32,000 bases of DNA from Candidatus Saccharimonadota bacterium (GTDB lineage: Bacteria; Patescibacteriota; Saccharimonadia; Saccharimonadales; Saccharimonadaceae): assembly GCA_000503915.1 (NCBI GenBank), contig CP006915.1, positions 180,001 to 212,000 of the forward strand. The letters are read 5' to 3'. Made by a program: the position numbers and the translations under genes. Position 1 is the stretch's first letter; each line of letters begins with the position of its first letter. The notes beneath the pieces were generated by a model that searched no databases, was not told the origin of the DNA, and saw only the letters and a list, made by a program, of their open reading frames with translations. Positions 12,933 to 26,414 of the stretch are shown here, piece after piece.

Positions 12933-14162
12933 TTATAAATAGCGCGTGCTACCGAACGGAATCTTTTGTTTGACCATCTGCGTTGTGAGCGTGTCGGCGG
13001 AGTGGATTACCCGCTTGCCGTAGCGACCATTGATATTGTCCACTGCCCGCGTGACTGCCTTTTCTTTCGCCAGCTCGTCACCAAATAGGTGCAGCTGGGC
13101 TTCATCAGGCTCGGTTAGTTCGTAGCAGCTCACACCGATTTCCTTGAGTGGGTACGGCGCTGTTTCAAACAGTGCCTTTGCCTGATCGTAAATTGCTTGG
13201 TTGGAGAAAAAGGGCAGGGCGGCCATATGCCTGGCGTGCCAGTAGCCTCTGTCGTAGCTGCGGGCATGAACTGAAATACCACGCGCCACTAAGCCCTGGG
13301 AGCGGACTTTCTCGCCAACTGATTCGCAGAGATTGTGGAGCCGTTGCAGTACTTTTTCTGGCGGTAAGTTATACTCTTCGAGTACGTATTGCCTACCAGC
13401 CGTACGCATAGGAAAATCACGCTTATCGACTTCCCAGCCCCTCAGTCGTTGATACCACTCACTGCCGACGATACTTTGAAAGACCATCTTCCGTAGCGTT
13501 ATTTCTTCGGCATCGAGAAACTGTAAGGGCGTGAGAATGCCGACAGCGTTTAGCCGTTTTTCAAACCGGCCAGCAATACCGGTCAGGTCGGTCAGCTCCA
13601 ATGTGGCGAAAACGTCGCGTAAGTTTTCGTGCGTGATGACATCAAGTCCGTCCGGCTTGTGTAAGCTAGCGGCGGTTTTCGCCAGAAAACGATTGGTACC
13701 AATTCCGACGTTGCAGCGCATCGCGCACCCTACTTCACCACGCAGCCGCTGTTTTATCTCTTGCCCAATTTCTACCAAGTTTCGCCCAGCGATAGCCGCC
13801 GTCGTCTCACTAAAATCAATTACTCCTTCGTCGATACTCTTCATACGTACATGCGCCGAATAGTCATTCATAATACGCATCAGCTGATGGTAGACATAGC
13901 GATACTTCGGTGGATCGCTCTCCAGGCCGATCAGGTCAGGGCAAAGCAACTTCGCATCCTTCAGACGCATACCTAGCTTCACACCCATAGCCTTGGCTTC
14001 GTAGCTGGCCGTCACGATCATCGTATTTTCGGTGCGGCGATTTACCACCGCCACTGGTCGGCCGCGTAGCATTGGCCTGGCTTGCTGCTCGACCGTGGCA
14101 AAGCAGCTATTGAGATCTATATGCATGATAAGCGGCCGAGCCTTGTTGTAGTTATCCTTCAT
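12933..14162 (-). CDS. dinB: Y-family DNA polymerase IV (DinB)
   Basis: IMHIDLNSCFATVEQ..VVVNRR..ASYEAK..SIDE motifs. AGGGAG SD at 14171-14176. Confidence 0.9.
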   Translation of the reverse strand: MKDNYNKARPLIMHIDLNSCFATVEQQARPMLRGRPVAVVNRRTENTMIVTASYEAKAMGVKLGMRLKDAKLLCPDLIGLESDPPKYRYVYHQLMRIMNDYSAHVRMKSIDEGVIDFSETTAAIAGRNLVEIGQEIKQRLRGEVGCAMRCNVGIGTNRFLAKTAASLHKPDGLDVITHENLRDVFATLELTDLTGIAGRFEKRLNAVGILTPLQFLDAEEITLRKMVFQSIVGSEWYQRLRGWEVDKRDFPMRTAGRQYVLEEYNLPPEKVLQRLHNLCESVGEKVRSQGLVARGISVHARSYDRGYWHARHMAALPFFSNQAIYDQAKALFETAPYPLKEIGVSCYELTEPDEAQLHLFGDELAKEKAVTRAVDNINGRYGKRVIHSADTLTTQMVKQKIPFGSTRYL

Positions 14163-14176
14163 AACTGAAGCTCCCT

Positions 14177-14681
14177 GTTCTTTGACTGGTCAAAGAACCA
14201 AACCCACTTCTTTTCACCTTGACGTGAAAAATCGGGGTCCCCACAAAACTTGTTTCGTGGGGTGATAGTGATGCAAGAGGGTCAAGTCCGGCTTCTTTCA
14301 CTTGGTAAGCCGCTGTAAAAATGAACAATCGTCTGCGGAACTCGGGCTTATTGACGTGCCACTGGCACGTCAATGCATCCTCAAACAGTCCTCGACTGGT
14401 AAGATTGTTGTTTGTTACATCGTCTGAGCCAGGAGAAAGAAGAGGACGGCGGGGTCTGGGGTATCTGCAAGAACCGGGTTGGGTAGTGCCAGCTTTTCCT
14501 GGTGCGACGAGGATGTTTGAGGCTTTTGCCGAGTTCCGCAGTCGCCAAAGAAAAGCTGGCACTACCTGACGCCGCGTTCTGAAGCCACCCCGGTCGTTTT
14601 GGTTCTTTTGCAGACTCAAAAGAACGACTTGCTTCTTGGTCTCAAGAAGATTCTGCCATGGTCTGGTCAAGACAGGCCATT
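14177..14681. other. Dense array of perfect hairpins and long-range helices; unclassified structured RNA or hairpin-ended element
   Basis: Local hairpins at 14177-98, 14211-30, 14239-62, 14289-312, 14351-73, 14602-25, 14632-49 and 14658-80. Long-range pairs are 14333-45/14529-41, 14379-94/14508-22 and 14482-98/14550-66. ORFs in the track here are low-complexity and overlap the palindromes. Confidence 0.5.
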
Positions 14682-14945
14682 TCATATATGATCCCCCTCA
14701 CGTGTCAAATGCCACGTCAGCCGCTCGCTATCGAACTCCAGCCGGTAGTCAGCTCCGCCGTCGGTCACGTCAAAAATATGAAGTGTTTTTGAGCCTTGCA
14801 CTACCGGGTGACGCAGGCCAATTTCCGTAACCATGACTTCACGACCGTTTGGCCGCCTGAACTTGACCGGCCGACACGGGTTGAGGCCACCACCAAAGGT
14901 AGCAATTGCCTGCACCCGTTCATGTAAGAAAGTTTCGTCATTCAT
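14682..14945 (-). CDS. Small hypothetical protein (87 aa) encoded upstream of dinB
   Basis: MNDETFLHERVQ..PVKFRRPNGREVMVTEIGLRH..LHIFDVTDGGADYRLEFDSERLTWHLTRE. GGAG SD lies 5 nt before ATG 14945. The upstream 87 residues of the ORF-track model are R/K/S-rich and look non-coding. Confidence 0.55.
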   Translation of the reverse strand: MNDETFLHERVQAIATFGGGLNPCRPVKFRRPNGREVMVTEIGLRHPVVQGSKTLHIFDVTDGGADYRLEFDSERLTWHLTREGDHI

Positions 14946-18061: not shown

Positions 18062-18138
18062 GGCAGCGTAGCTCAGTTGGTTAGAGCGTAGGACTCATAA
18101 GCCTAAGGTCACTGGTTCAATTCCAGTCGCTGCTACCA
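18062..18138 (+). tRNA. tRNA with CAU anticodon, elongator tRNA-Met-like
   Basis: GGCAGCG-TA-GCTCAGTTGGTTAGAGC-G-TAGGA-CTCATAA-GCCTA-AGGTC-ACTGGTTCAATTCCAGT-CGCTGCT-A-CCA. Resembles E. coli metT in the D and T arms. There is an A31:G39 mismatch. Confidence 0.85.
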
Positions 18139-18144
18139 CGTAAG

Positions 18145-18169
18145 AATCCCACTCCATGTGGGATTTTTT
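18145..18169 (+). terminator. Rho-independent terminator after the tRNA
   Basis: AATCCCAC-tccat-GTGGGATT followed by TTTT. Confidence 0.8.
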
Positions 18170-18193
18170 CGTGGTAATACGGACTGGGACTGA

Positions 18194-18310
18194 CCCAGTG
18201 ACCGCGGCAGCTCCAGCTGACGCATGGTCACTGGGTCGCAAAGCGGAGAAAGGAAACTCGTGCTTGCACGTGTCCCTTTCGGAGCGGAGGAGCGAGCAGA
18301 GCGAGCGATA
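18194..18310 (+). repeat. tRNA-downstream conserved element, copy 1 (stem plus 90-nt core)
   Basis: The 90-nt core 18221-18310 differs at 4 transitions from the reverse complement of 25372-25461. It is preceded by the stem CCCAGTGACC/GGTCACTGGG. Confidence 0.85.
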
Positions 18311-18497
18311 TCCCAGTCGCCTCTACGAAGATATAAAGCTATAAAGCGGTTTTTCTTTTTCGGACTTTTTTCATCTGTTAAGGGTTAGCCCCTGGGATTT
18401 ACCCCTATATCAAAATCGGGTGCAAACATTGATGGCTAGAACTCACTCTCCAAGCACTTACACTCTTGCCTGTGACACTACTTCAAAAGTTATGGTT

Positions 18498-25540: not shown

Positions 25541-25618
<78 letters not shown>

Positions 25619-26338: not shown

Positions 26339-26414
26339 GGGGCTGTAGCTCATCGGTTAGAGCAGGCGGCTCATAACCACTTGGTAGTAGGTTCGATTCC
26401 TACCAGCCCCACCA
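26339..26414 (+). tRNA. tRNA with CAU anticodon, tRNA-Ile2 (lysidine)-like
   Basis: GGGGCTG-TA-GCTCATCGGTTAGAGC-A-GGCGG-CTCATAA-CCACT-TGGTA-GTAGGTTCGATTCCTAC-CAGCCCC-A-CCA. The TAGAGCAGGCG.CTCATAA...CTTGGT stretch resembles E. coli ileX. There is a C29:A41 mismatch. Confidence 0.8.

Follow-up and report, generated by a model that had tools for sequence, protein, structure and literature searches.

What is the block of almost uninterrupted palindromes that separates dinB from the small gene upstream of it in the Saccharibacteria contig CP006915.1? The block, referred to here as the insert, occupies positions 14163–14681 of the 32-kb stretch that we analysed (the whole stretch is called the window, and its coordinates are used below). 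An initial annotation had presented it as a stretch between two genes, taken up either by a novel structured RNA or by the relic of a hairpin-ended element. Our comparison with orthologous and more distant loci reveals that the insert sits precisely where the stop and start codons of a two-gene operon overlap as ATGA, a gene for an 87-aa protein being followed there by dinB, and that it belongs to an element family found at this junction in both orientations, in-frame in one Saccharibacteria topA and in IMG/VR contigs. [quoted passage not shown]

Insertion at the overlap of the small gene and dinB

One genome per species was queried with the 87-aa protein, yielding 80 Saccharibacteria loci. 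The 87-aa gene and dinB overlap or abut in 64 of these (distances of -20 to +7 nt), and inserts longer than 40 nt occur at the junction in 14. Because the two genes directly overlap or abut in 64 of the 80 species, the region in the window is an insertion. Three metagenome contigs reached through protein-database look-ups (L081–L083; labels of this form denote comparison loci and contigs retrieved here) carry close homologues of the insert with the same synteny and in the same orientation. By comparison, the inserts of L030 (together with the near-identical L087–L090), L062 and L068 aligned poorly with the window along the gene strand and align instead with its plus strand, revealing that the element is inverted relative to the genes at these loci. 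The blocks common to the window and the inverted inserts are a hairpin followed by CCAAA and then CCACTTCTTTTC; TCAAGTCCGGCT; GGGGTCTGG; and GAAGCCRCCCC...GTTTTKG followed by a hairpin. The search for further copies and syntenic orthologs that the initial annotation had proposed was thus productive, with homologous inserts in L081–L083, L030, L062 and L068, and it showed most orthologous junctions to be empty.

The inserts of L030 and L062 are 60% identical, and entire hairpins are swapped between them for compensating sequences. On a neighbour-joining tree of dinB, carriers are interspersed with genomes whose site is empty, and single hairpin-unit remnants persist at the junction in L013 and L056. 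The hairpin type TTCTTT..AAAGAA occurs at the junction in 10 loci and elsewhere only once in 636 kb of Saccharibacteria DNA. A metagenome scan with the terminal motif returned the known L081 contig and two chance matches that lack hairpins (L084 and L085); a viral scan with the same motif gave no match, nor did BLAST of the insert against phage genomes.

Two inverted hairpin units, each with an X box

The insert and its parts are as follows.

14163–14681: palindrome-rich insert of ~520 bp (519 bp); the top strand of the element is the plus strand of the window, which is antisense to the operon here
14177–14230: left terminal hairpin units; 14177–14198 reads GTTCTTTGAC-TG-GTCAAAGAAC and is followed by CCAAAC, and the second unit lies at 14211–14230
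14239–14262: extra, lineage-specific hairpin, inside a 39-nt stretch that is not present in L081–L083 by alignment
14333–14394, minus strand: X box copy 1, composed of CGAGGACTGTTTGAGG, the hairpin 14350–14374 and CCGAGTTCCGCAG
14482–14566, plus strand: long hairpin S, with X box copy 2 (X', 14508–14541) at its apex
14593–14680: right terminal hairpin units, inverted relative to the left end; GTTTTGG with 14602–14625, then 14632–14649 and 14658–14680
14158–14163: direct repeat TTCATA (TATGAA on the gene strand) at the dinB start, a possible target-site duplication
14681–14686: second copy of TTCATA, at the stop of the small gene and the ancestral dinB ATG

The helices first noticed by eye were recovered by a repeat search. 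These include the perfect palindromes 14177–14198 and 14350–14374, helix S (14482–14498 with 14550–14566, 17 bp, 100% paired), helix A (14330–14345 with 14529–14544, 16 nt, 94%) and helix B, which pairs at 15 of 15 positions with one bulge. The kinship of the two end hairpins was likewise borne out, with arms 14192–14207 and 14593–14608 being 88% complementary. Folding of 522 nt gives -201 kcal/mol for the minus strand (z = -6.7) and -221.6 kcal/mol for the plus strand (z = -8.1), and none of 100 shuffled sequences folded as well on either strand. When the whole window was scanned with a sliding frame of 150 nt, z < -5 was reached at two places only, the insert and 18076–18325.

From these parts, the element appears to consist of two inverted units, each of which would comprise one to three terminal hairpin units of the TTCTTT..AAAGAA type and a long hairpin with an X box (GGACTGTYTGAG, a hairpin and CGAGTT). 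The outermost units of the right end vary between close homologues. Further apart, L062 has one X box, and L030 is without the S/X' domain. Counterparts of the 6-nt direct repeats are CTATGA in L083 and ATGAGG in L030, those of L062 and L068 being ambiguous.

Neither strand of the region matched a family of Rfam 15, and the same held for the whole window and for six related loci, including L093 and L094–L098. The best scorers were tRNAs and generic hairpin (miRNA) models, the latter far under threshold. No convincing promoter or terminator was found in the insert.

A stop-free frame bridges the insert

The region is not a plain gap between genes. The gene strand holds a bridging ('relay') open reading frame (ORF) that had been missed, here called ORF177, between the following features.

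14152–14685, minus strand: ORF177, 177 codons, spanning the whole insert
14682–14945, minus strand: 87-aa gene upstream of dinB, conserved in Saccharibacteria
12933–14162, minus strand: dinB, Y-family DNA polymerase IV (Pfam IMS 4e-36, IMS_C 8e-14)
14171–14176, minus strand: Shine-Dalgarno-like AGGGAG, read from the sequence, 8 nt upstream of the dinB ATG and just outside hairpin 14177–14198

The ATG of ORF177 overlaps the TGA of the small gene as ATGA (14682–14685), and its stop lies 8–10 nt past the dinB ATG, with the ORF running 11 nt into dinB. The indels among the four close homologues (the window and L081–L083) are all multiples of 3, and the ORF177 frame is held in the three other sequences despite indels of 3, 3/21/33 and 39 nt.

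This arrangement recurs among all inserts longer than 100 nt at the small-gene/dinB junction, which comprise 17 loci, several unrelated sequence families and both orientations. A gene-strand ORF bridges the small gene to dinB in 14 of the 17, with a start located 3–33 nt ahead of where the small gene's stop codon ends, and with its own end 0–13 nt past the dinB start; in L068 the ORF stops 6 nt short of an alternative TTG start of dinB. The geometry of coupled genes, with a stop and the next start overlapping or within a few nucleotides of each other at both ends of the spacer ORF, is thereby present in the window and in 14 of the 17 inserts. The other five frames of the large inserts contain 1–16 stops. 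Frame openness was evaluated by dinucleotide shuffling, giving p = 0.0003–0.014 for each large insert, and ORF177 was open in 18 of 3000 shuffled sequences.

Termination–reinitiation coupling is established for overlapping ATGA gene pairs. In the mechanism that we propose, a ribosome that has finished the small gene would start again at the former dinB ATG and read through the insert, melting ~520 nt of helices; having stopped ~10 nt beyond the present dinB ATG, it would reinitiate at that ATG, and the coupling of dinB would survive the insertion. The host would tolerate the insert because one gene-strand frame is kept stop-free, as the shuffling statistics strongly suggest. Judged from the sequences, the frame appears to be selected so that ribosomes pass from the small gene to dinB, and the 177-aa product is probably a by-product. 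The hairpins would be the element's own, serving its propagation as folded single-stranded DNA and/or being kept perfect by hairpin-templated repair, rather than a host RNA device.

Several further observations concern the junction. Hairpin-rich inserts that are unrelated in sequence to the element occupy it in L009 (3393–3667), L031 (4265–5002), L006 (4268–4419), L019 (436–579), L027 (4268–4398), L073 (4268–4374), L007 and L076. All of these are ORF-bridged, and the ORF of L031 has 259 codons and no family match. The junction seems to be either a hot spot of palindromic insertion or the sole place that tolerates such inserts. In addition, dinB is called as 545 aa at L087:3459–5096 and as 425 aa at L089:3423–4700, on contigs that are nearly identical around the insert, which suggests a further insertion or frame change downstream. 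An 82-aa ORF on the plus strand opposite ORF177 (14321–14569) was discarded as a candidate gene; its ATG is ATA in L081, and the start is not conserved.

Related elements in topA and in other phyla

The X-box search pattern CGAGGAYNGTYTGAG-N(3–33)-CGAGTTCCGCAG recovered three IMG/VR contigs, L091, L092 and L093. L093 holds a complete element of ~410 bp with two X boxes in inverted orientation and with inverted ends of ~52 bp, each bearing a TTCTTT..AAAGAA hairpin, while L091 holds two copies of the element and L092 a fragment inside a topA ORF. A hidden Markov model (HMM) built from the Saccharibacteria elements matches L092 (3.8e-11), L091 (1.7e-6 and 1.7e-4) and L093 (2.2e-5). Conversely, an HMM from the non-Saccharibacteria units alone matches, on the strands expected, L062 (E = 6e-4) and L082/L083 (E ~1e-3). 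L092 is a Saccharibacteria contig, with a TopA 96% identical to that of an oral-taxon-488 genome. Its X-box segment (L092:10215–10390, minus strand) is an in-frame insert of ~58 aa that is absent from homologues of 92–96% identity, and the X box is translated as RGEDCLSEASSAA. Another topA homologue carries a different insert at the same spot.

The terminal unit of L093 further matches sequences of Ilyobacter (94–100%), Pseudoalteromonas, Ralstonia, Burkholderia and Caballeronia. The matches include 134 Ralstonia records with 1–17 places each and 20 places in Caballeronia, and related elements are present at 1–20 places per replicon in Ralstonia, Caballeronia and Burkholderia; BLAST of the terminal unit against E. 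coli genomes gave no match. At the cbiE/cobaltochelatase junction of R. solanacearum FJAT91 (L099), two inverted units of ~230 nt with mirrored ends are found, each built from a GC hairpin, one hairpin unit and a long hairpin whose apex carries the X-box core CTGTCTGAGCGAAGCGAGTT. Strain T95 is without this element and its two genes abut; this cob-gene junction is filled in some Ralstonia strains and empty in others, and neither the exact ends nor a target duplication is readable there, filled and empty strains being too diverged. A single unit of ~232 nt is dispersed at 83–87% identity, and further copies occupy the aceF–lpdA interval in Burkholderia and the mdcE–madL interval in R. wenshanensis. 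The long hairpin with an apical X box is shared by Ralstonia L098/L099 and L093, and terminal hairpins of the TTCTTT..AAAGAA type are also present at the ends of L093 and the Ralstonia elements. Stops interrupt all frames of the Ralstonia and Burkholderia copies, which lie between non-overlapping genes.

In some genomes the hairpin unit has structured neighbours. It adjoins a TwoAYGGAY RNA (RF01731, 51 bits) in Pseudoalteromonas (L095:1501–1681) and, in Burkholderia and Caballeronia (L097:900–1045 and L096:925–1040), the sRNA candidate Bp1_Cand684_SIPHT (RF02421, up to 119 bits), which lies directly beside it. The hairpin unit may travel with different structured partners. The left end of the window insert gave a sub-threshold score with BTH_s39 (RF02692; 16.7 bits, E = 0.63, against a gathering score of 77 bits). 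Both Bp1_684 and BTH_s39 are Burkholderia transcript predictions rather than characterised RNAs, and the element is covered by neither model.

Constraint acts on the nucleic acid

In a comparison of the four close homologues, identity is 84% for the insert, as against 66–76% for the small gene and 70–81% for dinB. Variable columns make up 17% of paired and 40% of unpaired positions, and the helices described initially contain 14 double-sided pair changes, against 5.5 ± 1.7 in shuffles. Helix S and hairpin 14350–14374 account for five of these 14 pairs each. The constraint thus acts on the nucleic acid and not on a protein. Because the helices covary and conservation is higher in the insert than in the genes on either side, the term 'relic' is doubtful, whereas the 'hairpin-ended element' part of that description is upheld by the insertion, the inverted terminal hairpin units and the dispersed repeat family.

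The strand on which the constraint would act was examined as well. Among the pairs common to the predictions for both strands, 97% are Watson–Crick. In the window group, the mismatches in strand-shared helices are mostly G.U on the plus strand (10 cases, against 2 on the minus strand), and the alignment folds better on the plus strand (-167 versus -150). The G.U test is reversed in the L030/L062 pair (4 versus 7), and the G.U/A.C counts and the minimum free energy (MFE) differences are reversed or neutral in L030 and L083. The assignment of a strand by G.U versus A.C counts and MFE differences is not decisive.

Weighing the interpretation

A number of observations weigh against a tolerated mobile element. 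Nearly all Saccharibacteria copies are at this one junction, and a second copy was found neither in the 32-kb window nor in the 8-kb sequences flanking the 80 loci. Two histories are compatible with the distribution: repeated insertion, or a single ancient insertion with later losses and a single inversion. The putative 5–6-bp target duplication is ambiguous because it overlaps the ATGA required by both genes. No transposase partner was identified, and no search aimed at an autonomous parent insertion sequence (IS), RAYT or TnpA was made. The window is linked to the proteobacterial elements by the terminal unit, the X-box core and a common design, with no significant full-length alignment, and the Saccharibacteria-built HMM did not match the Ralstonia and Burkholderia elements. 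A functional RNA would likewise be compatible with the covariation and with an insert better conserved than its neighbours. Finally, the translation of ORF177 and its coupling to dinB are deduced from the sequences, and dinB has a Shine-Dalgarno-like AGGGAG of its own.

How might such an element move? A refinement of the preferred interpretation, rather than a competitor to it, is mobilisation as single-stranded hairpin DNA, either as a REPIN by a REP-associated tyrosine transposase (RAYT; REP, repetitive extragenic palindrome) or as a palindrome-associated transposable element (PATE) of the IS200/IS605 type by a Y1/HUH transposase. We think this possible but less likely than not. The near-perfect hairpins, the inverted-doublet design and the almost exclusively Watson–Crick pairing are consistent with it, as is the GCGAAGC mini-hairpin at the X-box apex of some copies; Hirao and colleagues reportedly found this DNA mini-hairpin to be very stable in 1992. 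On the other hand, units of ~230 nt are far longer than REPs, and 1–20 copies per replicon are not hundreds. Furthermore, IS200/IS605 elements have no terminal inverted repeats and no target duplication, while the present element shows such repeats and possibly a 5–6-bp duplication. The resemblance to IS200/IS605- or PATE-like elements noted at first therefore extends to the subterminal hairpins and the lack of coding capacity and ends at the termini; since these are inverted repeats of each other, the element does not fit the definition of a PATE of that type.

A functional structured RNA, either a cis-acting gate on dinB within the operon mRNA or a separate plus-strand non-coding RNA antisense to dinB, would have its helices selected as RNA. 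The strong fold on both strands, the compensatory changes in helix S and hairpin 14350–14374, the conservation above the flanks, and the excess of plus-strand G.U mismatches with the better plus-strand alignment fold all agree with such an RNA. We nevertheless consider it unlikely, as 64 of the 80 orthologous operons are without the insert and the element occurs in both orientations relative to the genes. Moreover, modules are missing in relatives: L030 is without S/X', and the 39-nt stretch with hairpin 14239–14262 is absent from the other three close homologues. The 97% Watson–Crick share implies unusually few wobbles for an RNA, and the strand test flips in L030/L062. The family is also found inside the topA ORF and between unrelated genes in other phyla, no copy belongs to an Rfam family, and neither promoter nor terminator is convincing. 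The switch or giant pseudoknot once suggested by the crossing of helices A and B with S found no support. Helices A and B are a consequence of the X box being present twice in the element, in inverted orientation (X and X'); they show no variation across the four close homologues and therefore give no covariation signal, and the relatives L062 and L030 have one X box or none.

Somewhat related is the reading in which the long X-box hairpin and its flanking hairpin units form a functional nucleic-acid module maintained across phyla, acting from the top strand as a structured RNA or a single-stranded DNA device, and co-opted at dinB as a translational gate. We think this rather improbable. Were it true, synthesis of an error-prone polymerase would depend on ribosomes crossing ~500 nt of helices, and the relay ORF would be regulatory and not mere damage control.

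ORF177 could also be a genuine protein gene of the operon, as annotated, with incidental hairpins. Its 177 codons, the classic coupled overlaps at both ends and a frame preserved in three homologues despite indels, which is unlikely by chance, are what a gene would display. By contrast, substitutions are spread evenly over codon positions in ORF177 (20/26/28) and not in dinB (101/62/291), and owing to this lack of codon periodicity, ORF177 is not under amino-acid-level selection. ORF177 has no match in Pfam or NCBIfam, and its only homologues among 5.8 billion proteins are three, all of which represent the same insert. A different ORF, read from the other strand of the element, spans the inverted copies of L030, L062 and L068, unrelated inserts are bridged too, and stems change with compensation while the encoded residues change. 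A protein gene is thus very improbable. Unconstrained palindromic debris arising by chance, which is favoured only by the absence of a known family, can be dismissed in view of the fold z-scores, the conservation above the flanks, the covariation and the homologues in other genomes.

Comparison with known palindromic elements

As a tolerated, translated insertion, the element is reminiscent of Rickettsia palindromic elements (RPEs), which insert in-frame into unrelated genes, as summarised in a review (PMC10969869, citing Ogata 2000 and Delihas 2007). Like RPEs and ORF-carrying intragenic ERIC and BOX sequences (PMC10969869), it would be palindromic selfish DNA that survives in transcribed or translated sequence through an open frame, and the topA copy behaves exactly as RPEs do. 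The differences, judged by description and not by sequence, are that RPEs are ~150 bp long and confined to Rickettsia, whereas the present element measures 400–620 bp and occurs in several phyla. In addition, unlike RPEs, the copies at dinB are not fused to a host protein and form a separate relay ORF between formerly overlapping genes.

The element shares with the Correia/NEMIS MITEs of Neisseria the absence of a transposase, terminal inverted repeats, a location between co-transcribed genes, a strong hairpin when transcribed, and presence/absence polymorphism among strains. Of the features by which MITEs are defined, terminal inverted repeats, small size with no transposase gene, and polymorphism at orthologous sites are present, and the target-site duplication is putative. 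Between family members, too, the ends align with each other in inverted orientation. It is larger than Correia/NEMIS, and its internal box and covarying internal structure are conserved, whereas typical MITEs conserve mainly their ends. By comparison, REPINs and BIMEs are REP doublets mobilised by RAYTs (PMC3116915), and the element resembles them in its two inverted hairpin-forming units, its extragenic sites in operons and its long, mainly vertical persistence (PMC3116915). It departs from REPINs in having units about ten times the length of a REP, a low copy number and a sequence shared across phyla rather than lineage-specific REP families; where REPINs have REP units of 20–40 nt in tens to hundreds of copies, this element has units of ~230 nt at 1–20 copies per replicon. 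The motifs of the LexA (Cheo) box, integron attC, Tn3-type GGGG ends and IS66 GTAA ends do not fit. No name for the family was found in Rfam 15 or in the searchable literature by X-box, terminal-unit and keyword searches, and it may be described elsewhere.

Neighbouring gene and other features of the window

The 87-aa protein encoded upstream of dinB has 162 relatives in Saccharibacteria at 70–80% amino-acid identity and no match in Pfam or NCBIfam. One possibility is that it assists the Y-family polymerase as an accessory factor not yet recognised.

A second very stable fold lies at 18076–18330 (z ~ -5.5 in 150-nt windows), just 3' of the tRNA-Met gene 18062–18138, and has no similarity to the dinB-junction element. 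It comprises a 46-nt, 80% inverted repeat of the 3' half of the tRNA-Met (18107–18152 with 18158–18203), a terminator-like hairpin and a perfect 12-nt inverted repeat (18192–18203 with 18226–18237), and could be an integration-site scar. The 32 kb contain three tRNA-Met (CAT) genes, at 18062–18138, 25541–25618 and 26339–26414.

Significance

What had been a candidate for a giant novel RNA is replaced by a composite palindromic repeat with conserved internal structure, present in a candidate phylum and in several other phyla. The second outcome is the relay pattern: in a very small, gene-dense genome, nearly every insert at this junction, whatever its family or orientation, is bridged by a stop-free frame. 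The junction inserts would thus represent a natural experiment pointing to selection for the translational coupling of dinB, and this pattern may be of note to specialists. More generally, 'hypothetical proteins' such as RAAC3_TM7C00001G0217, under which ORF177 is listed in GenBank for Candidatus Saccharibacteria bacterium RAAC3_TM7_1, may be translated spacers and not genes.

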